From the IMG/VR virus record IMGVR_UViG_3300046786_000370, positions 1 through 15,926 of that record: DNA of 15,926 nucleotides. One strand, written 5' to 3'. The translations under genes were made by a program, and so were the position numbers. Of this stretch, positions 1 through 15,926 are shown piece after piece. The stretch is from a virus. Taxonomy: Duplodnaviria > Heunggongvirae > Uroviricota > Caudoviricetes. How positions within the stretch are numbered: position 1 is the first letter of the stretch; the number at the start of each line of letters is the position of its first letter. The notes under the pieces are model-generated. The model had not been told where the DNA came from, ran no database searches, and worked only from the letters and a program-made list of their open reading frames with translations.

Positions 1-50
1 ACAGCAAGACCCAAAGTCAAACAATTCATTCCATTAATGGAGGAGTTAGA

Positions 51-773
51 ATGACAAAACGACAACAAAAACGTGTTCAACCACAGGAACACGCCGCAGT
101 TCTGCATATTGAAAAATATCGTAAAGAGCGCCAAAAGCAAGTAGAAATTCTACCTAAGAATATTAGACAAGAAGATTATCTTGCTCTGTTAGAAGATCCA
201 AGAAAAAGCATTGTGTTTGCCATCGGACCAGCTGGTACAGGTAAAACGCTGTTGGCTTGCCTTTTAGCAGTACGTGAGTTGAAGGCCGGCAGAATTCAAA
301 AAATTGTAATTACAAGACCAGCAGTTAGTGTTGACGAACAACATGGATTTCTGCCTGGCACGCTTATTGATAAGATGGCACCATGGACACGACCTATATT
401 CGATGTCTTCGAACAATTTTGGGCTCCAAAATATATTGAAAACATGATTGAGGAAAACGTCATTGAAGTGGCACCTTTGGCCTACATGAGAGGAAGAACA
501 TTTGAAAATTCAATACTATTAGCAGACGAGATGCAAAATGCTACACCTAGTCAAATGAAGATGCTATTAACACGCATCGGCAATAATAGTAGAATTTTTG
601 TTACCGGAGACTTAGCCCAACATGACAGGGGCTTTGAGGCAAACGGACTCAAGGATTTTATTACTAGATTAGAAGCATCATCCAGTAAGATGATTGGCAC
701 TGTGGAGTTTGAACAGCGGGACGTTGAGCGTCATGCCGCTGTAGCCGAGGTATTAAAGATTTACGGAGAGTAA
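51..773 (+). CDS. phoH: PhoH-like ATPase (PhoH family)
   Basis: Walker A GPAGTGKT plus PhoH-family motifs ITRPAV, GFLPG, PLAYMRGRTF, DEMQN, GDLAQHD and C-terminal RH; GGAGGAG Shine-Dalgarno at 39-45. Confidence 0.95.
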   Translation: MTKRQQKRVQPQEHAAVLHIEKYRKERQKQVEILPKNIRQEDYLALLEDPRKSIVFAIGPAGTGKTLLACLLAVRELKAGRIQKIVITRPAVSVDEQHGFLPGTLIDKMAPWTRPIFDVFEQFWAPKYIENMIEENVIEVAPLAYMRGRTFENSILLADEMQNATPSQMKMLLTRIGNNSRIFVTGDLAQHDRGFEANGLKDFITRLEASSSKMIGTVEFEQRDVERHAAVAEVLKIYGE

Positions 774-774
774 A

Positions 775-816
775 TTATAAACTGTTTGATGCGGGTCTTG
801 CACCACAGTTTTTATA
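775..816. terminator. Imperfect hairpin between convergent phoH and clamp-loader genes; candidate bidirectional intrinsic terminator
   Basis: AAACTGT (779-785) pairs with ACAGTTT (805-811) around an inner TGC-N7-GCA stem; A/T tracts on both flanks; lies in the 38-nt gap between two converging stop codons. Confidence 0.4.
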
Positions 817-1762
817 AAATACCGCGACGCAGTCTGTCAAGTTTAACCATTGTAGCACTAAGGTTGATTTCAGGATCACCACACAAACTGTGGTTGACTA
901 AACCTTCTTTAATGATAACAATAGCCAAGTCTTGAACGTCTTCATCTGTGCCCCAGAACTCAAGATTGCGATATAGGAACTTGTAGACTTCTTCGTATTC
1001 TTCGAGTCCAATCTTTTTACAAATGTGTTCACGTGCCTGTCGCACACGCCCATTCTGAATCATAGCGATTGCTTCTAACTTCCATTCGCTGGTATCGGTA
1101 CTTTGGCCTGCGCCAGGTAAGACTAACTTGCCACTGTTGCTGTATTGTTGAGCTGTATTAATTGCTTTACGCAAATCTGGATACATTGCCTTAACAAACT
1201 TTTGTAGCGTATCTACATCTTCTTCAGTTTCAATCTTAACGCCTTCTGTTTGTAGAATCTCTGCGATTCTAGCTAAGAAGTCTGTTTCATCTAACTGATG
1301 GAAACTAAAGCCTTGACAACGACTATGTAGCGCAGGCATAATCTTGTGTGGCATATTACAAGTTAGAATAAACTTAGCCACATTACTGTACTGCTCTAAC
1401 ATGCCACGCAATACTGCCTGTGCGTTGGGACTTAGATAGTCTGCTTCGTCGAGGATAATAACACGAAAGTCACCAAAGCTCATACTACGACAAAAGTTAC
1501 TGACTTTCTCACGAAGGTTATCGACACCGGTTTCATGACTGGCGTTAATGAACATAATGTCTGCTTTTTGTACGTCTAGTTCATTACATAGAACTTTGGC
1601 CAGTGTAGTTTTACCTGTGCCTGGAGGGCCGCTTAGTAGCAAGTGCGGAATGTTTTTGTCTTTAATCCAACCCTCGACCATAAGTTTTTGGCCAGGGTCA
1701 ATCCAAACGTAATCTTTAATATTCTGAGGCCTGTAACGTTCTACCCATAAGTAATTCGACAT
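812..1762 (-). CDS. Sliding-clamp loader AAA+ subunit (RFC small subunit / T4 gp44-like)
   Basis: N-terminal LWVERYRP (canonical WVEKYRP), Walker A GPPGTGKT, INAS motif, Walker B IILDEAD, FILTCN, SRC arginine finger, DLRKAIN; 316 aa. Confidence 0.93.
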   Translation of the reverse strand: MSNYLWVERYRPQNIKDYVWIDPGQKLMVEGWIKDKNIPHLLLSGPPGTGKTTLAKVLCNELDVQKADIMFINASHETGVDNLREKVSNFCRSMSFGDFRVIILDEADYLSPNAQAVLRGMLEQYSNVAKFILTCNMPHKIMPALHSRCQGFSFHQLDETDFLARIAEILQTEGVKIETEEDVDTLQKFVKAMYPDLRKAINTAQQYSNSGKLVLPGAGQSTDTSEWKLEAIAMIQNGRVRQAREHICKKIGLEEYEEVYKFLYRNLEFWGTDEDVQDLAIVIIKEGLVNHSLCGDPEINLSATMVKLDRLRRGIL

Positions 1763-2438
1763 AATTTATCTTTCTGTGATTTAACACTAATATTACATTA
1801 TAACTGTTTTCAACACATGCTGTCAACTTTGCTATGTTCTTTTTTTCTAATTCCAAATCTTTACCGTTTTTATTCCATGTCCAACTTGATTTGATTTCGT
1901 AAATTGTATTATCTATAATAAAATCACTAATATATAATCGACTTTCGTTATCTATAGGATCAATATAGTAGATTGATGGACCCCGACTTATATTATCTTT
2001 TATCCACTGTATTCCTTTTTCACTTTCTAATTCTTCAAGAAATTCATATTCATATGTTCCTTGATATTTTATTTCTGTTTCTTTATAGTCTAATAATGGA
2101 CACTGAAGATTGTTTTGCCAAGGAGTTTCTTCCCAATGCTTTTGCATAGTTTTAGAAAGACGTTTGTAGTGTCCGTTATTTTTTCTAGTTTCGGCACCTT
2201 TTATTTGAGATGTTTTTGTTATCCCTAATCTTGTTCTAGTTTCTAATGACTTGGCAGCATTTTCTTTATGATCGGCATTTTCAATAAATTTTTTTCTTTT
2301 TTCAGGACAAGAATTATAATGTGTAGAGCAACATTTTTTGCCGGCGGAGAATTGGAACTTTGCAACTTGACCGCAGCCATAATTGCAAAGTTCGTTAGTA
2401 ATAATAGGTGTTGCTTTGGGTATACTCTTTTTTCGCAT
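1716..2438 (-). CDS. Free-standing putative homing endonuclease, PD-(D/E)XK fold, with N-terminal Cys-rich putative Zn-binding segment
   Basis: C-terminal YISDF...IYEIKSSWTW resembles the PD...(D/E)xK catalytic motif; N-terminal CNYGCG...CC...C cluster; visibly more AT-rich than neighbours; 3' end overlaps the clamp-loader start by 47 nt. Confidence 0.7.
   Translation of the reverse strand: MRKKSIPKATPIITNELCNYGCGQVAKFQFSAGKKCCSTHYNSCPEKRKKFIENADHKENAAKSLETRTRLGITKTSQIKGAETRKNNGHYKRLSKTMQKHWEETPWQNNLQCPLLDYKETEIKYQGTYEYEFLEELESEKGIQWIKDNISRGPSIYYIDPIDNESRLYISDFIIDNTIYEIKSSWTWNKNGKDLELEKKNIAKLTACVENSYNVILVLNHRKINYVELLMGRTLQASEY
1739..1760 (-). repeat. Functional clamp-loader 5' end; one copy of an imperfect direct repeat flanking the endonuclease gene
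   Basis: 1739-1754 matches 2465-2480 at 14/16 nt, including an exact TTCTACCCA 9-mer; a further GAC matches after a 3-nt gap. Confidence 0.8.
1797..1826 (-). promoter_or_regulatory. Consensus sigma70 promoter for the clamp loader, embedded in the endonuclease CDS
   Basis: Minus strand TTGACA (1826-1821), 18-nt spacer, TATAAT (1802-1797); clamp-loader ATG 35 nt downstream of the -10, with AGAAAGA SD-like sequence before it. Confidence 0.75.
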
Positions 2439-2443
2439 ATACT

Positions 2444-2450
2444 TATTTAT
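2444..2450 (-). promoter_or_regulatory. T4-like late promoter core (ATAAATA) 5 nt upstream of the endonuclease ATG
   Basis: Minus strand reads CTACGC-ATAAATA-AGTAT-ATG; no SD between the motif and ATG. Confidence 0.55.
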
Positions 2451-2464
2451 GCGTAGAGACTAAT

Positions 2465-2483
2465 TTCTACCCACAAATAAGAC
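2465..2483 (-). pseudogene. Decayed duplicate of the clamp-loader 5' end directly after the groES stop
   Basis: Minus strand (TA)AG TCT TAT TTG TGG GTA GAA encodes (K)SYLWVE versus MSNYLWVE of the real gene; start codon lost; frame closes 5 codons later. Confidence 0.7.
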
Positions 2484-2852
2484 TTAGCGAGCGCCAAAGT
2501 CTTCAGGGCGAACGCCACTGCTTAGATCAAATGATTCGCCAAACATTTCTTCTTTGGGTTCTTCATCTGTTACTAACATGATACCATTAGGATCAATCTT
2601 TTGGAATTTAAAATCGTCGCCATTGTCGTCTTTAATAGTAATAGTCATGGTCCAACGACCATGTTCAACTAGTATCCATTGACCTACATCAATGTCTTTG
2701 ACATCTTCGGCAATTTTCCAAACTTTTGCCCAGCGAGGCCTGATGCCTTCCTGTTTTCCATTATCATCACGTAAAATAATACCGCCGGCTGTAGTGCGGC
2801 TTCCTGTTTGCAATACTGCAAAAATATTTCCTGGTAAAGGATGAATATTCAA
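2484..2852 (-). CDS. groES: Co-chaperonin GroES (Cpn10)-like protein
   Basis: HPLPG start, mobile-loop TTAGGIIL, DIDVGQWILVEHG; TTG start codon right after the upstream TAA, with an AGGAG SD about 9 nt upstream; acidic C-terminal extension. Confidence 0.8.
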   Translation of the reverse strand: MNIHPLPGNIFAVLQTGSRTTAGGIILRDDNGKQEGIRPRWAKVWKIAEDVKDIDVGQWILVEHGRWTMTITIKDDNGDDFKFQKIDPNGIMLVTDEEPKEEMFGESFDLSSGVRPEDFGAR

Positions 2853-3236
2853 TTACAAATCTCCTGTATTTCCTGCTCGACTATCAATATCAACCCTTGT
2901 TTCTATTTTAGTTTCAAGCTTGTCTTGAATCTCTACGCTGCCATCAGCATAGGTAATTTCCCAACGTGGCACTCCGTCTGCGCCAACAATTTCTTTTCTA
3001 CCAATTTCCTGTTCCATTGGATTCAGTTTTACTGTAGTTGTGGTTGCTTGCCCACTCTTTTTATTGTACATTTCTGTGGTGATTTGCTGGCGTGTGGCTA
3101 TAATTTTGCCGCCTGGGCCTAGTAAATCACCACGGGCGTTTCTATTACTATTGCCAACGGCCACTGATTCGCCTTTGGCATCAGCAAATGCCTGCATATT
3201 AAATTCTCTACCACGATTCGTTCTGTGTTGGCTCAT
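2853..3236 (-). CDS. Hypothetical phage protein (AVGN..NARGD.LGPGG motif)
   Basis: 127-aa ORF coupled to both neighbours (ATGA overlap upstream, stop abutting the groES start); the motif resembles conserved large-phage hypotheticals (recalled, not searched). Confidence 0.7.
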   Translation of the reverse strand: MSQHRTNRGREFNMQAFADAKGESVAVGNSNRNARGDLLGPGGKIIATRQQITTEMYNKKSGQATTTTVKLNPMEQEIGRKEIVGADGVPRWEITYADGSVEIQDKLETKIETRVDIDSRAGNTGDL

Positions 3237-3715
3237 TTTAAAAATTCCTTAATGTCTAAGTTAAACTTATAACTATCTATTCTGTGTATGCCTATCAAAT
3301 ATAGTACATAACTGGCAATACTACTGCCCCTACCTACACCATATATGATATTGTTTGATCTTAGTATTGTAACAAAATAACAAAGAAAGCGCAACAAATC
3401 TAATAAGTTTCTTTTTTCAAATTCTTGTAATTCTTCGTCAATTCTAATCCACTGTGCTGCCGTTAAATTTGGATGTAATTTTTCTATATAGTTTATTACA
3501 TCTAAGCTTTCGTATTCAACTGGCATAGCCCAATGAATATCGCTACGATCAGACGCTAGTTTGAATGGAACATCTAATCCGTATTTTTTACAAGTAGATT
3601 CAAATTGTTGAAATGACGTTTTATTGCTGGGCAATATTTTTACTTGCCGATTAGCCAACATCAACTCTACAATTTCATTATCGTCTATATACATTTGACC
3701 CTTGTTGTTTATCAT
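3233..3715 (-). CDS. Stand-alone fragment of DNA polymerase III alpha (DnaE/family C), ending just before the catalytic DxD
   Basis: RIDEEL..FEKRNL...L..FV..LRSNNIIYGVGRGSSIASYVLYLIGIHRIDS.KFNLD..EFL matches the DnaE segment GxGRGSxAGSLVAYxLGITxIDPxxYxLxFERFL; only 160 aa. Confidence 0.8.
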   Translation of the reverse strand: MINNKGQMYIDDNEIVELMLANRQVKILPSNKTSFQQFESTCKKYGLDVPFKLASDRSDIHWAMPVEYESLDVINYIEKLHPNLTAAQWIRIDEELQEFEKRNLLDLLRFLCYFVTILRSNNIIYGVGRGSSIASYVLYLIGIHRIDSYKFNLDIKEFLK

Positions 3716-3936
3716 TATCCGATGCTTAAATAATCATCAAATCCATCGCCCCTGTCTGCTTTCTGCATTTGCCGCAGATCTTGTTGAGCAAATCTAACTT
3801 CCTGTAACATAAATTCAAAGTGACCAATGACTTGTGGATTCGCGTTTGCTCTCAGAGCCACATTCATTTTTTTAATAATTGCTCGTTCACGTTCTAACAA
3901 TTCGTTCAAACGCTGTTCCGTAGTATTATCAGCCAT
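3715..3936 (-). CDS. Hypothetical helical protein
   Basis: 73-aa ORF overlapping the sufA stop by 8 nt and the dnaE-fragment start by 1 nt (TAATG); amphipathic-helix composition. Confidence 0.65.
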   Translation of the reverse strand: MADNTTEQRLNELLERERAIIKKMNVALRANANPQVIGHFEFMLQEVRFAQQDLRQMQKADRGDGFDDYLSIG

Positions 3937-4258
3937 TTTTAAAATTTACACTTTCTCCGCAACCGCAACTGTGTGCGACATGTGGATTAACTATAGACAA
4001 TCTACTATTAATTCCGATATTCTCAATGACAACTTCGCTGTCAATGACATAAGGCAATGCTTTATTATTGACAACAACAAAATGGTCGTCATCTAAATTA
4101 ACAATATGGTCACTGGTCTTAATAGCAACTGGAGTCCAAGTATATTTGTAACCTGTACATCCTTGTTGCTCTAAACCCAATTCGACACCTGGGCGGCGAC
4201 TGCGCTCAAGCATATTGACAATATATGTTTTTGCCTCTTCAGATATTGTTAGTATCAT
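3929..4258 (-). CDS. sufA: A-type Fe-S cluster carrier (SufA/IscA, HesB family)
   Basis: LTISEEA start, QGCTGYKY and C-terminal NPHVAHSCGCGESVNF: all three conserved Cys present. Confidence 0.92.
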   Translation of the reverse strand: MILTISEEAKTYIVNMLERSRRPGVELGLEQQGCTGYKYTWTPVAIKTSDHIVNLDDDHFVVVNNKALPYVIDSEVVIENIGINSRLSIVNPHVAHSCGCGESVNFKNG

Positions 4259-4578
4259 ACTTTTGCTAATACTTTTACTAGTTCTTCTTTAGTACTGCGA
4301 GCTTTAACTTCCAAGCCATGCTGAGCAACTAGTGCCAACAAATCTTTCTTAGTCATTTTGTTTAAGTCAACACGTTTGTATTTTGCTTTGACTGTAACTG
4401 GTGCAACTTCAAAAGCTGGTGTTGGTAACACCTCGGCCGGAACAACTGCTTCTTTGACAACAACTACAGCGTCTGTGCCCACTGACATATCTACTGTTGG
4501 TGTTTCAACTTTATAAGGTGCTTCTGCAGCCTTAGTATCACTCTTGCCAGTGATCCATGCTAATATTGCTTTGATCAT
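4255..4578 (-). CDS. Hypothetical protein: Ala/Val/Pro-rich linker plus C-terminal HeH/SAP/Rho-N-like helix-extension-helix domain
   Basis: DLNKMTKKDLLALVAQHGLEVKARSTKEELVKVL fits the L..MT..EL......GL......K.ELI..L pattern; overlaps sufT by 41 nt and sufA by 4 nt. Confidence 0.6.
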   Translation of the reverse strand: MIKAILAWITGKSDTKAAEAPYKVETPTVDMSVGTDAVVVVKEAVVPAEVLPTPAFEVAPVTVKAKYKRVDLNKMTKKDLLALVAQHGLEVKARSTKEELVKVLAKV

Positions 4579-4897
4579 AATCGTACATTCCCATTTCTAA
4601 TCTTGCCTCTTCGGATACTCTTTCGGGAGTCCACGGAGGATCAAACACCACTTCTACTGAAGCAGTTCTCGTAGTATTTAACTCTGCCAACGCTTTTTCT
4701 ACTTGCACACGCACCTCTTCGGGTATTTCTTCTGCGCTTGGACAAAAAGCACTTGTTAGTGTCATAGTTATTTTAACATCTGTGTCTGTAACTGTCAAAT
4801 CATAGATAAGTCCTAAGTCATAGATGTTTACCGGAATTTCCGGATCATACACTGACTTTAAACCAGCGATAATTTTATCTTTAATTTGATCATTCAT
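4538..4897 (-). CDS. sufT: SufT / DUF59 (MIP18-family) Fe-S maturation protein
   Basis: LKSVYDPEIPVNIYDLGLIY, MTLTSAFCP (conserved Cys), VVFDPPWTPERVSEEARLEMG. Confidence 0.92.
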   Translation of the reverse strand: MNDQIKDKIIAGLKSVYDPEIPVNIYDLGLIYDLTVTDTDVKITMTLTSAFCPSAEEIPEEVRVQVEKALAELNTTRTASVEVVFDPPWTPERVSEEARLEMGMYDYDQSNISMDHWQE

Positions 4898-5268
4898 AAT
4901 GTTTTGATTTTTGCTATTAAATTAGCTACGCCATTTTGGCGGCCCATACTTAATAATGGTGCTAATCCGATATCTGTGAGTGTATTTAAGCTGAAATTCA
5001 CTTGCTGTATTTGACTTGCTTGATTATACCAATCACAGATCATCGACGCAATACCTTGTACTATTAGACTGTCGCCATAGCAGTAAATTTTATCTTCAAT
5101 CTTTTCGACCCATAAATTGCTAGTGCAACCTTTGACTAAATTGACTTCATTTTTTGTAACAGAAAACACAGGCTTGGCAATGGCACCGTATTCAATGATC
5201 CAGTCATATTTGTCCATAGCGTCTTCTAACTCAAACAGCTCGTTGAACATGTTTTGAAAGTCTAGCAT
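4894..5268 (-). CDS. sufE: SufE sulfur-acceptor / cysteine desulfurase activator
   Basis: KYDWIIEYG, NLVKGCTSNLW (persulfide Cys), GDSLIVQG, GLAPLLSMGRQNG; AGGAG SD 7 nt upstream, inside sufS. Confidence 0.88.
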   Translation of the reverse strand: MLDFQNMFNELFELEDAMDKYDWIIEYGAIAKPVFSVTKNEVNLVKGCTSNLWVEKIEDKIYCYGDSLIVQGIASMICDWYNQASQIQQVNFSLNTLTDIGLAPLLSMGRQNGVANLIAKIKTL

Positions 5269-6427
5269 GTATTTCTCCTAAGCTATCTAAAGCTAATTCT
5301 ATTTCTTGCCTTGTTGTATAGCAACCCCAACTTAATCGCAATAACGCACCATTACTTAATTGAGTAACCAACGGTTCGGCACATAACTTGCCACTTCGAA
5401 TCATAATGTTATTAGCGTCTAACATCATTGTATAATCTTCTACTGTGCCTACTACTGGTTCCAAACAAAGCAATCCAGAATCTGTTTTACTAACAGGCGT
5501 AAATTGTGCTAATGATATTTGGTCGTTGATAATTTTAGCAAGACTGATGTCATGCTCTTCTATATCATTTTGATGTTCTATTAGCCATTCAACAAGCCTA
5601 GGTATGGCGCAGATAGCACTGAGATTTTGTGTACCACTTTCGAACTTAGTAGCATTCTTAGTCCAAGTTACAGAGTCTGTGCTAACACTGGTAACAGTAC
5701 CGCCACCTGGACGAACTGGATCAAAGTTTAACCAAACTGGATCTATAAGCAAACAACCTAATCCCATTGGACCATAGACTTTGTGCCAAGAGAACGCAAC
5801 AAAGTCGAATCCACTAATATCTATTCTGCGCTTACTAATGATTTGACTAGCATCAATAACACTAACAGCCGCAACTTCTAAGGCAATCTTTTTAATGGCA
5901 TCTAAGTCATTGACTAAGCCTAGTACATTGCTGACAGCGTTAACGGCAATGACTTTACTGACTGCCATTGGCTCTTGTTTAATCTTTGCTTGTAAGTCAT
6001 TTAAGTCTAAGCGTCCGTCCTTGTCCAAATTAATAAACACAACTTTCCATTTAGCGTTACCTGACTGTGTCCAAGGTAAAATTAAACTGTGATGACTGTC
6101 GATACCAACAAATACTACGCCAGAGGACATTGCACTCATAATCATAGCCGCGGCATCGTTTAATCCCTGTGTAGTGCCACTGTTATAAACAATACGCTTT
6201 TCCGGATGATTAATGTTGAGCCATTTACCAATAAGTTCTTTGCTTAGATGATACTGCTGGTCAACCCATGTACCCATGCTGTTACCACTACGATGAGCAT
6301 TACTTTTGTGATCAAGCATAAAATCTCGCTGATCTTCTGCCACTGTATACAATGTTTGGCTTGTTGCCGCACTATCCAGATATATTATATCTTGTTTGCG
6401 TTTGAAAAATGGAAAACTATCACGCAT
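5231..6427 (-). CDS. sufS: SufS-type (group II) PLP-dependent cysteine desulfurase
   Basis: IYLDSAATSQ, SNAHR, HHSLILPW, DASQ, FSWHKVYGPMG (PLP Lys), FESGTQN, IRSGKLCAEPL (catalytic Cys), RLSWGCY; 398 aa. Confidence 0.92.
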   Translation of the reverse strand: MRDSFPFFKRKQDIIYLDSAATSQTLYTVAEDQRDFMLDHKSNAHRSGNSMGTWVDQQYHLSKELIGKWLNINHPEKRIVYNSGTTQGLNDAAAMIMSAMSSGVVFVGIDSHHSLILPWTQSGNAKWKVVFINLDKDGRLDLNDLQAKIKQEPMAVSKVIAVNAVSNVLGLVNDLDAIKKIALEVAAVSVIDASQIISKRRIDISGFDFVAFSWHKVYGPMGLGCLLIDPVWLNFDPVRPGGGTVTSVSTDSVTWTKNATKFESGTQNLSAICAIPRLVEWLIEHQNDIEEHDISLAKIINDQISLAQFTPVSKTDSGLLCLEPVVGTVEDYTMMLDANNIMIRSGKLCAEPLVTQLSNGALLRLSWGCYTTRQEIELALDSLGEIHARLSKHVQRAV

Positions 6428-6851
6428 CTAATAAACTCTGCTTAATTAATTCTTTATAATCGCTAACGCCCCTGCTAGCGAGATAATACTTATCCTCAGG
6501 TTTTAATGTTCCTAAAGCATTACCATGTGTTGCAATAATTTTGCTGTTACGGATAAACATTTCAGGTCTTGCTTTTATTTTACTCTTATCAAAAGGCCAA
6601 CTACGGATCTGTATATCTGTTTCAACCCCACTGACTTCTTTTGGCACATCTAATGTACAAACACAGTCTACTTCGCTGGTTCCTTCTGCGTAGATATAAA
6701 TCTTTACTTTGAATTTAGTGTCCGGGTGTGGTTTTAATTTAATATTAGCAATACACTTGCCGTCGGTTTGTATAAACACAAACTCGTATTCAGATCGTGT
6801 AGGCACTAATACTAAATCTAAACTTTCAGCATCCAAATAGACTTTACGCAT
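6420..6851 (-). CDS. sufD: Truncated (mini) SufD: C-terminal beta-helix turns plus SufC-binding helices
   Basis: RPEMFIRNSKIIATHGNALGTL..EDKYYLASRG matches the SufD tail P.LEI.ADDV.(C/A)SHG...G......YL.SRG; position between sufC and sufS; only 143 aa. Confidence 0.8.
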   Translation of the reverse strand: MRKVYLDAESLDLVLVPTRSEYEFVFIQTDGKCIANIKLKPHPDTKFKVKIYIYAEGTSEVDCVCTLDVPKEVSGVETDIQIRSWPFDKSKIKARPEMFIRNSKIIATHGNALGTLKPEDKYYLASRGVSDYKELIKQSLLDA

Positions 6852-7497
6852 TACTTAAATCCAATTTGTTATCACTGTATTTTGCTTGTAGTTCTTTGTC
6901 GTGTGTTACCAACAATACTGAGCCGCCATTACCACAAGTTTCTGCGATTAAGTCGATGATTTTTTGACGACTGCTTTGTTCCAGGCCGCTGTCTGGTTCA
7001 TCTAGTAGCAATAATTTTGTTTTGTTTTTAAGATATACAGCTTGTACGATTTCATTCTTCTTACGTTCGCCGCCACTGGCACCGAGATTAAATTGTCGCT
7101 TTTCCCAACCTTCTGGTAAACCAATCCAATTGAACAATGATTTACTAAGTTTAATTAAATCACTGGTTGAACCCGAGACGTTTTGAACTTTTTGTATTTC
7201 TTTAAACAATGTCATAGTATTAACACCATCTATACTGGGAGGGCTTTGATGTGCCATAAAAACTCCTACTTGACTGCGTTCATGGCATTCCATGTTATGT
7301 AACTCTGTATTGTCTAAATGAATATCGCCTGTGGTAGTAATATCAGGACGACCCATGATAGCGTGTAGTAGTGTACTTTTACCTGCGCCATTTTGTCCTG
7401 TTACTAGTAAACACTTGCCCTTGGACAACTCGATGTTTACATTGTTTAAGATTTGTTTGTCGCCAATGCTCGCCGATAAGTTTGTAATTTTTAGCAT
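6844..7497 (-). CDS. sufC: SufC ABC-type ATPase of the SUF scaffold
   Basis: Walker A GQNGAGKS followed by IMG, Q-loop FMAHQSP, RQFNLGASGGERKKNEI (SufC-type signature), LLLDEPDSGL, LLVTH switch; 217 aa. Confidence 0.92.
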   Translation of the reverse strand: MLKITNLSASIGDKQILNNVNIELSKGKCLLVTGQNGAGKSTLLHAIMGRPDITTTGDIHLDNTELHNMECHERSQVGVFMAHQSPPSIDGVNTMTLFKEIQKVQNVSGSTSDLIKLSKSLFNWIGLPEGWEKRQFNLGASGGERKKNEIVQAVYLKNKTKLLLLDEPDSGLEQSSRQKIIDLIAETCGNGGSVLLVTHDKELQAKYSDNKLDLSNA

Positions 7498-8912
7498 TAT
7501 CCTATGCTGCCTTCCATGGTTACTGATAATAATTTATTTGCTTCTGCCGCAAATTCTAAAGGCAATGTGTTTAATACACTACGGCAAAAGCCGTTGACAA
7601 TCGTCGATGCCGCTTGTTCTGCATCCAAGCCACGAGTTGCTAGATAATATAATTCTTCTTCACTTACTCTGCCTGTAGTTGCTTCGTGCTCAATTTGACT
7701 GCTGTCGTTTCTACATTCTGTATAAGGAACAGTATTGCTGATACTGTCGTTGCCAATCATCAAACTATCGCATTGTGTGTAGTTGCGACTATTCTTTGCT
7801 GTTGGTGCAACACGGACTAAGCCGCGATAAGTCATTGTACTCCGACCAATGCTAATACCTTTGCTGATAATTTTACTGCGAGTATTAGCACCAATGTGAA
7901 TCATTTTTGTACCAGTGTCGGCTTGCTGATGACCTTTGGTAACTGCCACTGAGTAAAATTCTCCAATTGATCCTTCCCCTTGGAGTACGCAACTTGGGTA
8001 CTTCCAGGTAATGGCTGATCCTGTTTCCACTTGAGTCCAACTAACTCTGCTTCGTACGCCTCGACATTGGGCACGTTTTGTGACAAAGTTGTAAACGCCT
8101 CCAACTCCGTTCTCATCCCCTGGGTACCAGTTTTGTACAGTCGAATATTTGATTTCAGCCCTATCAAGGGCAACAAGTTCGACGACTGCGGCATGTAACT
8201 GATTCTCGTCACGTTGGGGTGCTGTACATCCCTCCAAGTAAGATACATAACTATCCTTATCTGCTATAATTAAGGTGCGTTCAAATTGACCGCTACCGGC
8301 ACTATTAATTCTAAAGTAAGTGCTCAACTCTAATGGGCATCGTTTGCCTTCTGGAATATATACAAAACTACCATCACTGAATACTGCTGAGTTGATACAA
8401 GCAAACCAGTTATCACTTTTAGGTACAACTGAGCCTACATATTGTTTTACCAATTCAGGATGGTGTTGTACTGCTTCATTGAAGCTACAAAAGATAATTC
8501 CTTCTTCTGCTAGTTTTTCTTTGTATGTTGTACCAATACTAACGCTGTCAAAAACTGCGTCAACTGCTACACCTGCAAGTTTAGCACGTTCATGTAAGGG
8601 AATACCTAACTTCTCAAAGTCATCTAGGATTTCCTGTGGCACTTCGTCTATACTGTTAAATTGTTTTTTAGGCCGGCTGTGATAGTAAATGTTATCATAG
8701 TCTGGGCGTGTGTATTTTAACTCAGCCCAATTGGGCTCGGTCATTGTGCTTAGTTTGTTTAGTGCATCTAGTCTAAACTCTAACAACCATTCGGGTTCAT
8801 TGTTCTTAGCACTGATAAGTCTAACGGTGTTTTCATTCAAGCCACGGCCCGTCAATTCACTTTCGACATTGGTAGTAAACCCTGCTGTGTATTCTTGTTC
8901 TAGTTCATTCAT
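7497..8912 (-). CDS. sufB: SufB Fe-S scaffold protein
   Basis: [82 protein letters not shown]; full length 471 aa. Confidence 0.98.
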
Positions 8913-9117
8913 TAATTACATCAAATATGTTACCATATTCGTATCTTGTCCAATCATCGTGATCAACATAAGTGTTAATACACCTTCTATATATCTTCTT
9001 TAACCATATACGTTCGCCGCTAACAGTTGTAACTGGATACCAAGCAAACCAAATATGCCATGGCATTACTTCAATCTTCCTATATACATTGCCTATAGGG
9101 TCAAGCATTACTGCCAT
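8905..9117 (-). CDS. Small Trp-rich phage hypothetical protein
   Basis: 70 aa, W..WFAWYPV...SG..IWL..IYRR pattern; overlaps the sufB start by 8 nt (ATGAATGA). Confidence 0.65.
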
Positions 9118-9443
9118 CTCAACATAAACATCATTTGTTCTTCTTTACTGTTAAATTCTATGATCATACCAGTAAGTGTACATTGTATACGACTTTCAGT
9201 ACACCAGTCAAATATTTGTTCTTCATTGTCAATCCAATATCTGTAATCACAGATCAATAACATAGGCTTGCTAAACTTAGTAACTTTGGCTTCTACGAAT
9301 TTAATGCCCTGTTCTTTTAGCATCTTATGTGCTGTGTTAGCTTCTTTGTGAACTAATACCATTCTATCTCCCTGCGGTTCCTCAATGAGTATTTCCCAAC
9401 AAAGTTTAGAACTGTTATAATGTGCCGACGGACTATTTGACAT
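9108..9443 (-). CDS. Phage hypothetical protein with C-terminal F...E..MMF.LRW motif
   Basis: 111 aa; GGAG SD upstream; overlaps both neighbours by 10-11 nt. Confidence 0.65.
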   Translation of the reverse strand: MSNSPSAHYNSSKLCWEILIEEPQGDRMVLVHKEANTAHKMLKEQGIKFVEAKVTKFSKPMLLICDYRYWIDNEEQIFDWCTESRIQCTLTGMIIEFNSKEEQMMFMLRWQ

Positions 9444-9678
9444 TGCTCCACTTTAATTTATACATTAAAGCATCTTCATTATTGAACGTAGCAGTAATAT
9501 GATAAGCATATCCGTAGGATGCATACTCGATATGTTGATGGTAGACTATGTCCGTTGAATGTTCTTTGACCCATGTACCGTGTTCAGTTTGAAGCCAATC
9601 ATAGGCAACGGCGCCCAGATATATTTCTGGGTCATCTACGTCGCCTACTTTAAGTGTTTTAACAACTAATTTGATCAT
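9433..9678 (-). CDS. Phage hypothetical protein (GDVDDPEIY...W.QTE.G.WV...F..EDALMY.LKW)
   Basis: 81 aa; ATGA overlap with the upstream gene; motif resembles conserved large-phage hypotheticals (recalled, not searched). Confidence 0.7.
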   Translation of the reverse strand: MIKLVVKTLKVGDVDDPEIYLGAVAYDWLQTEHGTWVKEHSTDIVYHQHIEYASYGYAYHITATFNNEDALMYKLKWSNVK

Positions 9679-9995
9679 TTGAACAAGATAAGTGCCATTA
9701 AGCCAGCTTGAATAACAAAGCCCAACCCAATTGTAACAATGTTCAAAATGTCTTTGCTGATTGCGGCTTTAACAAAGAATAAAAACAAGCCAGCCCAAGT
9801 AAACAATACAAGATCTACAGGAGGAGTCTTTTCTGTTAATCCAGTTAGAATAGCAAGTAGAGTAGGGATAGTGCTCAAGTGAATAAGAATAACTGCTAAC
9901 CAGCCCAATGTATCAGCACTGACTGTGACTAATTGTTCTTTGAGATTCTTAGTGCTATTTGATGTAAACTCGTTTAGTTTTTCAATAATATTCAT
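9675..9995 (-). CDS. Small three-TM membrane protein (PQ-loop/SemiSWEET-like or holin-like)
   Basis: Start reassigned from 10058 to ATG 9995 (AGAAAGA SD, removes the overlap with sleB); three hydrophobic stretches LGWLAVILIHLSTIPTLLAIL, LVLFTWAGLFLFFV, ILNIVTIGLGFVIQAGLMALILF; 106 aa. Confidence 0.65.
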   Translation of the reverse strand: MNIIEKLNEFTSNSTKNLKEQLVTVSADTLGWLAVILIHLSTIPTLLAILTGLTEKTPPVDLVLFTWAGLFLFFVKAAISKDILNIVTIGLGFVIQAGLMALILFK

Positions 9996-10006
9996 TTTAA
10001 TCTTTC

Positions 10007-10537
10007 TTACTTGTAAAATACATGTCCGCCAATAGTGGCTACTTTTTCCCGTTTCCATCCTGGGTTAATATGTGTCCCATGGAAGTAAAGGGCATTTTTT
10101 AGACTAGGCAGTCTAAATTCTTCTAACAAAACTTGTCTAGCGACAATTTCACATTCTTTGTAAGCGGCTTTGTTTTTAGGTCTTGCCATTGTAGCTTGTT
10201 CACAGTACCAACTAAACTGGCAAAGAACTTTGTCATAGACAACATTCTTTTGGTAAACAACTTTGCAGATGTCGCTGGGGAATTGCCCACTTGCGGCTCT
10301 GTTTAATGTAACTTGTGCTACGGCTACTTTACCTTCAAATGGCTCATGGCCTGCTTCGTGGTAAATGTTTTTAGCCAAGCAATCTAATTGTCGGTCTCGC
10401 ATTTCTGCGGTTACAGGACTGGCCTGTACTTCTGCTGCCTTTAATTGGTCCAGCTTATAGTTGATACCATAATAAGCAATTAGTCCGACTAGACTAACAC
10501 CTACTACAGACAGGATAATTTTAACGATGCGTATCAT
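10007..10537 (-). CDS. SleB/Hydrolase_2-family cell-wall hydrolase (lytic transglycosylase) with N-terminal signal anchor
   Basis: CLAKNIYHEAGHEPFEGKVAVAQVTLNR (catalytic Glu), ICKVVYQ, CQFSW, ALYFH, IGGHVFY; hydrophobic N-terminus; AAGGAGG SD. Confidence 0.9.
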   Translation of the reverse strand: MIRIVKIILSVVGVSLVGLIAYYGINYKLDQLKAAEVQASPVTAEMRDRQLDCLAKNIYHEAGHEPFEGKVAVAQVTLNRAASGQFPSDICKVVYQKNVVYDKVLCQFSWYCEQATMARPKNKAAYKECEIVARQVLLEEFRLPSLKNALYFHGTHINPGWKREKVATIGGHVFYK

Positions 10538-10572
10538 TCAGTATTCCCTCCTTTACGCGGTTGATTTAGTAC

Positions 10573-10588
10573 GTATCGACTACGATAC
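10573..10588. repeat. Perfect 6-bp inverted repeat at the predicted transcription start
   Basis: GTATCG-ACTA-CGATAC, beginning 7 nt downstream of the -10 box. Confidence 0.6.
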
Positions 10589-10595
10589 ATTCATT

Positions 10596-10624
10596 ATAAT
10601 AACACTTAATTGCTTGTGTGTCAA
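10596..10624 (-). promoter_or_regulatory. Strong sigma70-type promoter heading the minus-strand operon
   Basis: TTGACA (10624-10619), 17-nt spacer, TATTAT (10601-10596) preceded by TGn (extended -10); an overlapping TATAAT at 10598-10593. Confidence 0.75.
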
Positions 10625-10633
10625 GCTAAACGG

Positions 10634-10942
10634 TTAAGTGGTAAGTTTTTTGGTAACAACGGAATAACTTTCACCGGATCCTAGTATACAAGCAACGTCT
10701 TTGTTGAATTGTATAATGGTCCAAGTTCTTGTTTCTGGGTTAACAAATAGTGAATAGTTTGGTGTTTTACTGTCAGCTTCTTTACCAAACCAAATTGGGA
10801 CTTCTTTGAAATCGCTGTTTTTTAAATTTGAAATCATTCTTTCAGCTTTATCGCATTCTACTTCTTTGTTCGTTAAAAAAGTTTCGGCAGTGACACTATC
10901 TACAGTAGCGTAAAATAGTAAGAAGAGTAAAAGATATTTCAT
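10634..10942 (-). CDS. Exported hypothetical protein with two Cys
   Basis: Signal-peptide-like MKYLLLFLLFYATVDSVTA; VEC...EVPIWFG...LFVNPETRTWT...ACILG; 102 aa. Confidence 0.75.
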   Translation of the reverse strand: MKYLLLFLLFYATVDSVTAETFLTNKEVECDKAERMISNLKNSDFKEVPIWFGKEADSKTPNYSLFVNPETRTWTIIQFNKDVACILGSGESYSVVTKKLTT

Positions 10943-10946
10943 ATGG

Positions 10947-10954
10947 TATTTATA
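10947..10954 (-). promoter_or_regulatory. T4-type late promoter TATAAATA, 4 nt upstream of ATG 10942
   Basis: Exact TATAAATA on the minus strand followed by CCAT-ATG, no SD; flanked by a 5-bp inverted repeat GGTAT/ATACC. Confidence 0.65.
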
Positions 10955-11018
10955 TACCTAAAACAAGAAAGTTGTATAAACTTTAGTTTTAACACCATAT
11001 AACTACGCCAAAAAGTGG

Positions 11019-11058
11019 TTTAAATATAGTATTGCCGTTTTGGCGGCTTCATCAGGAG
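11019..11058 (+). promoter_or_regulatory. Candidate late promoter variant, small hairpin and SD for the plus-strand module
   Basis: TTTAAATA (11019-11026, 1 mismatch to TATAAATA), GCCG-TTTTGG-CGGC (11034-11047), AGGAG (11054-11058). Confidence 0.4.
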
Positions 11059-11064
11059 TGAATT

Positions 11065-12630
11065 ATGAAACGATTACTTGTTACTTTTGCTTTAACTGCA
11101 ATCGCAACTTCGGTATTGGCACAAACAACAACTACCGGAACATCGGGAACATCCAGTGGCACAACCACTGGTACAACTACAGTTATTAATCAAGGAACTT
11201 ACGATTCTAAGTCATTGGTGGATACTAATAGTACGTCTAATAGCGTGAGCACAATTAACACCAATAACGTTAATAGCGGTACTATTACCAACAATAACAA
11301 TACCAACTTAACAGGTGGTACGACTAATACCAATAACAACAATAACGTTAATAGTGGCACAATGACTAACAACAATAACAATAACAACGTTATGAGTGGT
11401 AGTGTTACCTATACAAACAATAACAACAACGTCAACAGTGGTACGCAAACGTTTAACAACAATAACGTGAACACTGGTACAATGACTAACAATAATAACA
11501 ATGTGAATACTAGCACAAGTTCTAGCACCAGTGTTAATACAAATAACAACGTTAATACTGGAACTATGACTTACAATAATAACAATGCTAGTACAAGTTC
11601 AAGCACTAACGTTAATACAAATAACAATATTAACAGCGGTACAATGACTTACAATAACAATAATGTTAATGCTAGCACAAGTTCAAATACCAATGTAAAC
11701 ACAAATAATAATGTTAATACAGGTGATATGACTAACCGTAATATTAATACTAGCACTAGTACAAGCACCAATGTTAATACTAACAACAATATTAACAGTG
11801 GCACAATGACTTATAACAATAACAACGTGAACACAAGTACCAGTGTTAATACAAATAATAACAACAATACTAGCACAAGTACTAACACAAATTATCAGTA
11901 TGGTACGATGACTAACATCAACCAAAATACTAATAATAGTACCAGTGATAATACAAATAGAAATATTAACACAGGTGATATGACTAATCGTAACATTAAT
12001 ACAACTACTGCTACGACAAGTAACACTAATACTAATATTAACAGTGGTACAATGACTAACATTAATCAAAATACCAACAACGGTACAATGACTAATAACA
12101 ATAATAACGTCAATCAAAGTACCGCTACTAATACTAACACCAACGTTAACCAAAATATTAACAGTGGCGAAATGACTAATCGAAATATCAACGAAACAGT
12201 TATAACGCAGAAAGTTATTCAACCACCGCCAACAGCAGTTGCTCCGGCAATGATGAGTGGCGGTAACAATGACTTATGTTCAACTGGTAGCAGTGGATCA
12301 GTACAAACACAGATCTTTGGTGTTAGCTCAGGTGGTACTATACGTGATTTAAATTGCGAACGCTTAAAGTTATCCAAGACATTGTTTGACATGGGCATGA
12401 AGGTGGCCGCAGTTGCTACTATGTGTCAGGATCGTCGTGTATTTGATGCTATGATGGCAGCAGGAACACCTTGCCCATACGAAGGCAAAATTGGCGAACA
12501 AGCTAAAGCGGCTTGGGAAGAAAACAAAGATAAAGTTCCACAAATAGAAGAAGCGAGCAAATATGAAACTGCAAAAAACATTGGCCTTGGTGCTTTGTTG
12601 GGCATCCTTGTTCATAACGCTTTCAAGTAA
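11065..12630 (+). CDS. Exported Asn/Thr-repeat protein with a four-Cys C-terminal domain and hydrophobic tail
   Basis: Sec signal MKRLLVTFALTAIATSVLA-Q; ~320 aa N/T/S repeats; C-domain PPPTAVAP..DLC..QTQIFG..NCERLKLSK.L.DMGMKVAAV..MCQD.RVF.AM..AGTPCP; tail IGLGALLGILV; AGGAG SD. Confidence 0.85.
   Translation: MKRLLVTFALTAIATSVLAQTTTTGTSGTSSGTTTGTTTVINQGTYDSKSLVDTNSTSNSVSTINTNNVNSGTITNNNNTNLTGGTTNTNNNNNVNSGTMTNNNNNNNVMSGSVTYTNNNNNVNSGTQTFNNNNVNTGTMTNNNNNVNTSTSSSTSVNTNNNVNTGTMTYNNNNASTSSSTNVNTNNNINSGTMTYNNNNVNASTSSNTNVNTNNNVNTGDMTNRNINTSTSTSTNVNTNNNINSGTMTYNNNNVNTSTSVNTNNNNNTSTSTNTNYQYGTMTNINQNTNNSTSDNTNRNINTGDMTNRNINTTTATTSNTNTNINSGTMTNINQNTNNGTMTNNNNNVNQSTATNTNTNVNQNINSGEMTNRNINETVITQKVIQPPPTAVAPAMMSGGNNDLCSTGSSGSVQTQIFGVSSGGTIRDLNCERLKLSKTLFDMGMKVAAVATMCQDRRVFDAMMAAGTPCPYEGKIGEQAKAAWEENKDKVPQIEEASKYETAKNIGLGALLGILVHNAFK
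11260..12200 (+). repeat. Degenerate in-frame peptide repeats N-[VI]-N-[ST]-G-[TDE]-M-T-[NY]-N
   Basis: 11 GxMT cores plus GTIT, GSVT and GTQT variants, separated by NNNN/NVNT/TSTS tracts. Confidence 0.85.
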
Positions 12631-15187: not shown

Positions 15188-15188
15188 T

Positions 15189-15377
15189 ATGGAATACATT
15201 GCTTATTTTATGTTAGGGTTTGGATTTGGTATATCGTTTTACTATATGTTTTATTACGATAACTCGTCGACTAAGTTAGAACGCATGAAGCATGATTTAG
15301 ATGTACGTAAAGAATGGTTCAGAATGTTAGCTGACCAAAAGAAAAACAAATCAAAATGGCCAGAAGGCTGGAAATAA
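15189..15377 (+). CDS. Small single-TM membrane protein
   Basis: Start reassigned to ATG 15189 (AAGGAA SD, 1 nt after the upstream stop); MEYIAYFMLGFGFGISFYYMFYY hydrophobic N-terminus, basic C-terminus; 62 aa. Confidence 0.65.
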   Translation: MEYIAYFMLGFGFGISFYYMFYYDNSSTKLERMKHDLDVRKEWFRMLADQKKNKSKWPEGWK

Positions 15378-15389
15378 TAGGAGAAACAA

Positions 15390-15926
15390 ATGACAGAAGA
15401 AATTAAAGACGTTAACGCAAAAATTGACGAAGCAGAAGCGGCTATGAAAAAATATGCCAGCAAAGATACTGTAATTAGTATTGGTGGCTACGAATTCACA
15501 CCCGCTAAACTAATGGTAGCACTTACTATTGTAAGTAGCACATTAGGTGGTTTGTATGGTGCCTTTGAAGTCTATAAAGACTATATTGGCATGAAGAAAA
15601 AGATTGCTGAATACAGTGCGCCTGACCTAAGTGGGTTTGACAAGCGTTTGGCAGTTATTGAAGAGAATAGTGCTAAGACCAGCGATTACACTCGTGATAT
15701 CAAAACAGATTTAAAGAACGACCTTCGTCGTAATGAATCAGTTACTGAGCAAGTTGAGCGCAGTGTAAAACAAGCACAACGTGAAACTGAAAGTGAAATG
15801 CGTGACATGCGTAAAGCAGTACGTGAAGACTTGGAAAAAGCTCGTAACGAAGCCAACACTATTCGTAAAGAAATGGCAGAAGCTCGTAGAGAAATTGAAC
15901 GTGAAGTTGTTCAGTTAAAGAAAGAA
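15390..15926 (+). CDS. Membrane-anchored coiled-coil protein (partial; runs off the window, absent from the ORF track)
   Basis: TAGGAG SD then ATG 15390; open for 179 codons: MTEEIKD...IGGYEFTPAKLMVALTIVSSTLGGLYGAFEVYKDY...APDLSGFDKRLAV then an E/R/K-rich heptad-like region. Confidence 0.85.
   Translation, partial: MTEEIKDVNAKIDEAEAAMKKYASKDTVISIGGYEFTPAKLMVALTIVSSTLGGLYGAFEVYKDYIGMKKKIAEYSAPDLSGFDKRLAVIEENSAKTSDYTRDIKTDLKNDLRRNESVTEQVERSVKQAQRETESEMRDMRKAVREDLEKARNEANTIRKEMAEARREIEREVVQLKKE

Follow-up and report, generated by a model that had tools for sequence, protein, structure and literature searches.

In a 15,926-nucleotide (nt) window of viral DNA (Caudoviricetes; IMG/VR record IMGVR_UViG_3300046786_000370, positions 1 to 15,926; "the window" denotes this whole stretch, the first 16 kb of an 80-kb IMG/VR fragment), the gene for a gp44-like clamp-loader large subunit is directly preceded by a gene for a probable nuclease. 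We consider it highly probable that positions 2482-1715 of the minus strand constitute a free-standing homing-endonuclease cassette lodged in the first codons of the clamp-loader gene, at the codons for the RFC-box-II motif LWVE-K-Y. As we read it, the cassette would comprise a linker that bears a late-promoter-like box, a PD-(D/E)XK-like nuclease gene with a sigma70-type promoter embedded in its 3' end, and a new clamp-loader start with about 14 replacement codons. The anatomy of the element, its presence/absence polymorphism, its fixed site, its horizontal transfer and its association with a changed motif are all observed in the comparisons described here.

All features of the locus are read on the minus strand. 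The stop codon of a GroES-like open reading frame (ORF) occupies positions 2486-2484, and one base further on follow the codons TCT TAT TTG TGG GTA GAA (2482-2465), which spell SYLWVE and lack a start codon. The clamp-loader gene itself begins with ATG (1762-1760), continued by TCG AAT TAC TTA TGG GTA GAA (to 1739) and CGT TAC AGG CCT. In the repeat search, positions 1739-1754 and 2465-2480 formed a 16-nt imperfect direct repeat with 14/16 matches (88% identity), both mismatches being synonymous third positions (TAT/TAC and TTG/TTA). The two copies bracket the nuclease ORF (2438-1716), whose last 47 nt (1762-1716) also belong to the clamp-loader gene. The 14/16 repeat, its synonymous mismatches and the missing upstream ATG had been described in an earlier, sequence-only reading of this DNA, and all of them were seen again. 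Such a similarity could be fortuitous, the nuclease gene being an ordinary intergenic ORF preceded by a spacer that merely looks like the clamp-loader start, and the shortness of the repeat (16 nt) and the A+T-richness of the region would favour this. Nevertheless, a 14/16 match to the first 36 nt of the clamp-loader gene was reached by just 7 of 20,000 shuffles of the 45-nt spacer, and was not seen in any of 2,213 further 45-nt segments of the window. Moreover, the repeat recurs in 18 further loci with host-specific sequence, and is missing from nuclease-free relatives. Together with a block shared by two different phages (loci L023 and L024, below), these relatives and the recurrence refute the chance explanation, to which we give practically no credence: the repeat is not a product of chance.

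The nearest cultured relatives of the clamp loader are found in Pseudomonas jumbo phages of the PA5oct group (54% amino acid identity), where a GroES-like gene also lies directly 5' of the clamp loader and PhoH is convergent downstream; the PA5oct allele reads MKELWTEKYRP. More closely related are eight IMG/VR loci (L002-L009), with clamp loaders 81-86% identical in amino acids to that of the window, the same gene order and no nuclease gene. In these loci, about 40 nt containing TTGACA-N17-TATAAT separate the GroES stop from the clamp-loader ATG, after which come codons for MTTQNYLWVEKYRP. The SYLWVE remnant, whose retention in nuclease-free relatives the sequence-only reading had regarded as contrary to an insertion, was found in 0/8 of them. 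That reading had also supposed an ancestral groES gene coupled directly to the clamp loader, and had expected the groES stop to adjoin the clamp-loader start in nuclease-free relatives; this part has to be abandoned, as a promoter-bearing spacer of about 40 nt separates the two genes and the start carries four extra codons. The window shares just the first 8 nt past the GroES stop with these spacers, and, by comparison with them, the promoter, the ATG and the four codons for MTTQNYLWVEKYRP are gone from its remnant. Within the window's clade, the nuclease is present in the window and in L132, and absent from L002-L009, L051 and L052. L132 is a metagenome contig whose clamp loader, PhoH and nuclease are 86%, 92% and 74% identical to those of the window; since its remnant is shortened exactly as in the window, with promoter and ATG gone in both, the loss is either old or was inherited with the cassette. 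The GTA GAA of the window remnant is closer to the right copy than to the GTT GAG of the relatives, and may be native or imported.

Scans of IMG/VR and of metagenomes yielded 19 distinct loci, the window included, with an intact nuclease homologue, which lies directly 5' of a gp44-like clamp-loader gene in 19/19. In the 18 loci besides the window, duplicated clamp-loader 5' codons bracket the homologous ORF, and the same parts recur: a short native remnant of the clamp-loader start, which extends past LW(V/T)E to include the wild-type K codon; a conserved linker with GCATAAATA, a T4-late-promoter-like box; the nuclease ORF, in most loci with a sigma70-like promoter in its 3' end; and a complete rebuilt start. 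Most loci keep the ATG of the remnant, and its core is kept in 19/19, even where the ATG is lost. The clamp loaders of the 19 loci are mutually 43-96% identical, yet insertion site and architecture are common to all of them. In the window, these parts correspond to the left copy (2465..2482), a displaced clamp-loader 5' remnant without a start codon, recognized from the sequence, the repeat search and the homologous remnants of the 18 other loci; to a linker (2439..2464) conserved across 13 aligned loci, which holds the stop of the remnant frame (2449-2447) and the T4-late-promoter-like box CATAAATA (2451-2444); to the nuclease ORF of 240 amino acids (1716..2438); and to the right copy (1739..1754), delimited by sequence and repeat search, within the rebuilt functional start of the clamp loader.

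The fixed site in 19 loci agrees with the sequence-only reading in placing the insertion within the LWVEKYRP-coding region, and corrects it by about 5 nt in the 3' direction: as the remnants of other loci continue through the K codon, the insertion point lies after E-K-(Y) and not after E, that is, after E-K plus one or two bases of Y. Likewise, the replacement start said to be supplied by the insertion recurs in the 19 loci, and the cassette also carries a promoter, which that reading lacked. Judging from the aligned loci, the nuclease gene has entered the LWVEKYRP-coding start of the clamp-loader gene and supplied a replacement start. The previously described 47-nt overlap is present (1762-1716), and turns out to be incidental, because the nuclease stop that overlaps the clamp-loader ATG in L024 (ATGA) reads ATGT in the window, where it is lost. 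Accordingly placed beyond that point, the 15-residue tail of the window nuclease consists of LWVE codons read out of frame, and model confidence there is low. Several proteins of the nuclease family end in '..MGR..', which are again LWVE codons out of frame; from these protein ends, the same clamp-loader overlap would be expected in their contigs. L037 and L043 lie on one 117,666-nt IMG/VR contig (23476-29150 and 88517-94191), which carries the nuclease-clamp-loader locus twice, in opposite orientations and with identical match statistics; this may reflect a large inverted duplication or an assembly artefact. Distant homologues, about 43-45% identical in the C-terminal domain, were found with no clamp loader nearby in L046 (216-3460), L048 and L049 (around 2501-2839), and other branches of the nuclease family probably target other genes. 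L046 carries two or more such distant homologues in tandem.

The cassette also differs in its history from the gene that it occupies. L023 and L024 share a block of 777 nt that is 100% identical, from the remnant ATG to 41 nt inside the clamp-loader gene, while their upstream genes are unrelated and their downstream clamp loaders are about 78% and then 68% identical in nucleotides. Over 91 locus pairs, nuclease and clamp-loader identities were weakly correlated (r = 0.33), with extremes of 100% versus 81% and 71% versus 96%, respectively. By these comparisons, the cassette moves horizontally and independently of the host gene. The rebuilt end of the window gene (1715..1762), which consists of a new ATG and some 15 codons, CGT (1738-1736) for the K-to-R change among them, is delimited by the end of the L023/L024 block and by a drop in identity to L002-L009: nt 1-60 of the window clamp loader are 48-63% identical to those loci, against 82-95% over the next 400 nt, and the divergence consists of dense changes over about 48 nt. 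On this evidence, the first 48 nt or so of the window clamp loader are foreign. In L131 and L133, remnant and rebuilt copy read WVE versus WTE or the reverse, and since the two copies encode different residues, one is native and the other imported. The nuclease is decayed in further loci, being truncated in L044/L045, L050 and L137 and frameshifted in the ExK motif in L058; the pattern of invasion, decay and loss fits the life cycle of a homing endonuclease. In addition, some nuclease-free alleles are of the changed type. L122, a relative of L023, has neither nuclease nor intein, and 38 nt of its gene are identical to a cassette-type start, including EKWRP; L052, from the window's clade, retains the native promoter and ATG, has no nuclease, and reads ERYRP with nearly the codons of the window. 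Such alleles are likewise in keeping with a homing-endonuclease life cycle, and fit loss of the cassette by recombination between the repeats, repair with the right-copy patch, or resistant variants that existed beforehand.

We then compared the motif that follows the insertion site over 112 distinct clamp-loader loci plus metagenome loci. All 19 loci with an intact nuclease differ from the consensus within WVEKY, 18 of them at K or Y. EKYRP is found in 4/4 loci with a decayed nuclease, as well as in 74 of the 89 loci without one, the other 15 differing. The changes are of seven kinds: K is replaced by R, A, V or L, Y by W or F, and V by C. ERYRP occurs in the window, L029, L038, L041, L131, L132 and L136; EAYRP in L026, L027, L133 and L134; EVYRP in L032; ELYRP in L037 and L039; EKWRP in L023, L024 and L042; EKFRP in L036; and WCEKYRP in L028. 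Departure from EKYRP thus characterizes 18/19 intact-nuclease alleles versus 15/89 nuclease-free alleles (Fisher p = 1e-10), and it separates intact from decayed nuclease alleles as well (Fisher p = 1e-4). Both tests overstate independence among loci that are kin by descent, which counts against our interpretation, although the changes are of seven kinds. The ERYRP of the window, proposed earlier as a possible self-immunising change, is by this comparison tied to the presence of the nuclease. The remnants keep the wild-type K codon, and the consensus of the 74 naive alleles, TGG GTA GAA AAR TAT CGN CC, is the likely target of the nuclease. Because the rebuilt 5' end recreates that target, a substitution in WVEKY would be needed for self-protection, and the change may well shield the resident allele from its own nuclease; intergenic and intron insertions need no such substitution, because the insertion itself breaks the target.

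The 240-residue protein is probably a PD-(D/E)XK nuclease, as its alignment and structure comparison suggest, with a Cys-rich N-terminus, a helical middle part and a C-terminal restriction-endonuclease-like domain. It has 246 homologues at E ≤ 1e-3, many of which carry PF24308/DUF7487; all named cluster members examined are "hypothetical protein", with no functional annotation in the sources examined. A literature search of incomplete coverage retrieved nothing on DUF7487, and no homologue was found among 50,697 phage records, except for a 38-residue match in one uncultured record. Residues D172, E181 and K183 are invariant in 22 aligned sequences; the family alignment also shows invariant C18, C22, C36, C37 and C44 and a conserved helical middle part, and the Cys-rich N-terminal module is probably metal-binding. 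Pfam and PHROGs gave no match to a GIY-YIG or HNH catalytic motif, the conserved motif being D...ExK. The AlphaFold model has a mean predicted local distance difference test score (pLDDT) of 80.6, exceeding 90 over residues 120-230. Comparison of residues 108-236 with VIA-align returned TnsA (Z 7.2), Vsr (6.2), Hjc (5.0), I-Bth0305I (5.0) and VRR-NUC (4.4). Foldseek found nothing in the PDB at E ≤ 0.001; its top rows were Cas4, RecU, RecE, Bax1 and Vsr, nearly all top rows having the restriction-endonuclease-like fold, at E > 0.03. A sequence search of the PDB with the family profile gave nothing below E = 1. Some homologues vary in their N-terminal modules: the Cys-rich module is doubled in P0076 and P0089, and P0041, P0103, P0115 and P0120 carry an extra N-terminal extension of 35-50 residues, of GGWNKG type and rich in K, S and T. 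As no Pfam family matched the extension of P0041/P0120, the label NUMOD3 was not adopted for it. This variation in the DNA-binding part of the protein fits a shifting target specificity.

The structural resemblance to Tn7 TnsA, the best of these matches, together with the direct repeats that flank the insert, raises the question of whether a transposon-like element created the repeat as its target-site duplication. However, the insert of about 750 nt holds a single ORF and no transposase or integrase, and no terminal inverted repeats are present at its ends. Moreover, the duplication has no fixed length (16 to more than 21 nt), is always anchored at the gene start in loci with a surviving ATG, and exists in copies that differ at the K/Y codons; the imported tract continues 20-27 nt past the repeat; and insertion is confined to one codon in one gene. 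The missing transposase and terminal inverted repeats and the variable length of the duplication led us to reject transposition, which we hold to be very improbable.

For a homing-endonuclease cassette, we envisage the following sequence of events, in which cleavage, the position of the cut, the route of repair and the activity of the promoters are what we infer. The native 5' codons of the clamp-loader gene would have been pushed upstream, where they became the short dead remnant that forms the left repeat. With the change that the rebuilt end carries in WVEKY (K to R in the window), the resident nuclease would spare its own allele, whereas alleles without a nuclease would be cut upon co-infection, at or close to GAA-AAR-TAT-CGN. 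Of the two broken ends, the left one could then pair with the remnant copy and the right one with the main part of the clamp-loader gene, so that repair would copy the cassette into the cut genome. If the left end paired with the right copy instead, only the immune patch would be copied, and nuclease-free immune alleles could arise. A broader proposal is that the LWVE copies are portable homology arms which permit homing into any clamp-loader gene whatever lies upstream, that the substitutions record an arms race between nuclease and immune alleles, that the remnant is also half of a regulatory hairpin, and that the whole is a design for invading coding regions with neither intron nor intein; we advance this larger scheme tentatively, as something rather to be doubted than assumed.

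It is also conceivable that the nuclease is a weapon or exclusion factor that cuts the clamp-loader gene of co-infecting EKYRP phages, the spread of the cassette being a by-product of an element that no longer homes. Its target lies in an essential replication gene, it has a late-type promoter box of its own, and immune variants are widespread without the nuclease (the 15/89 noted above), as would be expected under attack. Nevertheless, an identical 777-nt cassette in different phages, together with decayed copies, speaks for active spread and loss, as in a selfish cycle; moreover, cutting a competitor and homing are one biochemical act, which sequence alone cannot separate. We therefore regard a weapon that has ceased to home as unlikely.

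Regarding expression, the promoter and late-box calls are consensus matches only. A sigma70-type promoter, TTGACA-N18-TATAAT (1797..1826; 12/12 positions of the consensus), lies in the 3' end of the nuclease gene, 36 nt 5' of the clamp-loader ATG in the window. Read by eye, a promoter with at least 11/12 matches occupies the same place in L024, L026, L036, L039, L041, L042, L044 and L132. The embedded promoter would stand in for the displaced native promoter of the clamp loader; in T4, the endonuclease genes segG, segA, segE, mobB and mobC likewise have promoters of downstream genes embedded in them (PMC2988022). At the other end of the cassette, the CATAAATA box lies 5 nt 5' of the nuclease ATG. 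In the 80-kb genome G000, 11 of 15 (T/C)ATAAATA boxes precede by no more than 60 nt the ATG of an ORF that is 80 aa or longer, 9 of these 11 at a distance of 4-8 nt (examples are near 10954(-), 19342(-), 30802(-), 37193(+) and 57229(-)). Because this placement recurs across the genome, the nuclease probably has its own late-type promoter, and the spacing of the boxes suggests leaderless or near-leaderless late mRNAs in the phage. A similar observation was made in the spacer of the nuclease-free L003-L009 (about 3950-3995), where TTGACA-N17-TATAAT ends about 7 nt 5' of the clamp-loader ATG with no Shine-Dalgarno sequence, a short distance that suggests a leaderless clamp-loader transcript.

The remnant is also predicted to pair with the linker and its late-promoter box in a hairpin (2441..2482), for which we considered folding, shuffled controls and covariation. 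The left copy may accordingly be kept for a function, as the 5' arm of a hairpin that would mask the nuclease start on read-through transcripts and that transcripts initiated at the CATAAATA box would bypass, or as an operator that is bound uncut, in the manner of I-TevI; this would add to the homing reading instead of replacing it. The predicted free energy is -24.9 kcal/mol (z -5.1), equalled by 0/200 shuffles, and strong equivalent hairpins are predicted in L024/L023 (z -4.1) and in L042. Over 13 loci, 68% of the alignment cells are paired, against 30-52% in slid controls, 7 pairs vary on both sides, and the covariation score was reached by 8/500 shuffles. Retention of the remnant core in all 19 loci, even without the ATG, and the use of such hairpins and operators by T4 endonuclease genes (PMC2988022) point in the same direction. 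On the other hand, about half of the loci have other pairings in their minimum-energy fold, several inner stems are poor, and the percentage of paired cells was reached by column shuffles (137/500). Furthermore, the complementarity is partly fixed by the promoter box and the Leu-Trp codons, and a recent scar would also look conserved. We consider a functional left copy a possibility of some substance, somewhat short of even; masking of the nuclease start on read-through transcripts, as in T4, is suggestive only.

Several results weigh against a homing cassette, beyond the kinship of the loci already mentioned. In heterologous contexts, the left homology arm does not exceed about 20 nt, a short length for recombination-dependent repair. 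The 15/89 nuclease-free alleles that also depart from EKYRP could represent a standing polymorphism that permits the nuclease to reside. The remnants of the window and L132, being devoid of promoter and ATG, require a secondary loss of about 50 nt that is undatable. The embedded promoter overlaps conserved codons (K-L-T and Y-N-V), and constraint on the protein may explain its conservation. Finally, the structural matches are of middling quality (Z no higher than 7.2, Foldseek E > 0.03), with no sequence match to a solved nuclease, and the window protein scores 21.5 bits against DUF7487 (PF24308), below the gathering cut-off of 27. That cut-off is passed by homologues 59-67% identical to it (P0010 with 30.2 bits and P0120 with 29.6 bits); the DUF7487 match covers the C-terminal 85 profile positions only.

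The two genes that flank the nuclease were identified by profile searches. The host gene (812..1762, minus strand) encodes an RFC-like AAA+ protein of the gp44 type, supported by phrog_168 (E 6e-79), by the Pfam families AAA and Gp44_lid, and by the 54% identity to PA5oct-group proteins. The upstream neighbour, outside the cassette, is a gene for a GroES-like co-chaperonin of the gp31 type (2484..2852, minus strand), matched by phrog_931 (head morphogenesis, E 3.9e-12) and phrog_3188 (GroES, E 1.3e-4), and is a conserved neighbour in the relatives. A separate element was observed in some clamp-loader genes. That of L023 (1807-4127) is broken at Walker B (LLDE|C ... THN|C) by an intein, and inteins are also found in L036 (near 3492-4094) and L050 (near 3009-4368); L122, related to L023, has no such intein. 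The L023 intein is spread over three ORFs in different frames, the middle one of 317 residues (2474-3427) having a weak match to TnsA-like endonucleases, and looks like a 'fractured gene' or a split intein with a free-standing nuclease.

To our knowledge, only two ways into coding regions have been attributed to homing endonucleases: residence in an intron or intein, and division of a gene into two halves that both work. The cassette would represent a third route into coding regions in phages, whereby a few codons are cut off and the gene start is rebuilt with a promoter, an ATG and an altered target. It would provide a large family related to DUF7487 with a function and with a probable target of 15-25 bp, the RFC-box-II codons, and could explain odd N-terminal variants of phage clamp loaders. 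Moreover, it would strengthen the case that the replication genes of large phages are hot spots for selfish elements, some loci having a fractured intein in these genes as well. From a practical standpoint, an imported 5' tract and a remnant can mislead gene callers and phylogenies. Within its incomplete coverage, our literature search yielded no phage example in which the 5' end of a gene is rebuilt.

Known systems share parts of this arrangement. I-Ssp6803I and I-Bth0305I are PD-(D/E)XK-type homing endonucleases that are intron-encoded or intein-associated. The window protein resembles them in its restriction-endonuclease-like core, the match to I-Bth0305I (structure 3r3p) reaching Z 5.0; it differs in its Cys-rich N-terminal module and helical middle part, and has no detectable sequence similarity to them. 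In genetic organization, the cassette is similar to the Seg and Mob endonucleases of T4, such as segG and mobE: these are free-standing, adjoin the target gene and occur sporadically among relatives (PMC2988022). They also carry the promoter of the downstream essential gene within the endonuclease ORF and home without introns, and late or middle promoters and hairpins control the endonuclease (PMC2988022). In contrast, the T4 enzymes are of the GIY-YIG or HNH type, and occupy intergenic positions or divide a gene into two halves that still function (Aeh1 nrdA, T4 genes 39/60). They neither duplicate nor rebuild a gene end, and require no immunising substitution, since their insertion disrupts their own target.

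The closest analogue is provided by the mORFs of fungal mitochondria, described in atp6 of Allomyces macrogynus and in atp6, atp9, cox2 and nad3 of Glomus (PMC3630166). In both cases, an endonuclease gene enters a coding region together with a foreign duplicate of the gene end that it displaces; the gene is completed by the imported copy, which is more diverged from relatives than the native copy that is left as a remnant (PMC3630166). However, mORFs replace the 3' end, in frame, which needs neither promoter nor start, and encode GIY-YIG or LAGLIDADG enzymes (PMC3630166), whereas the cassette is found in phages, replaces the 5' end, supplies promoter and start, and encodes a PD-(D/E)XK-like protein. 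The cassette is hence an analogue of the mORFs, not a relative. Altogether, the comparison points to a new homing-endonuclease family, one that would invade coding regions by rebuilding the 5' end of its host gene, with no intron or intein.

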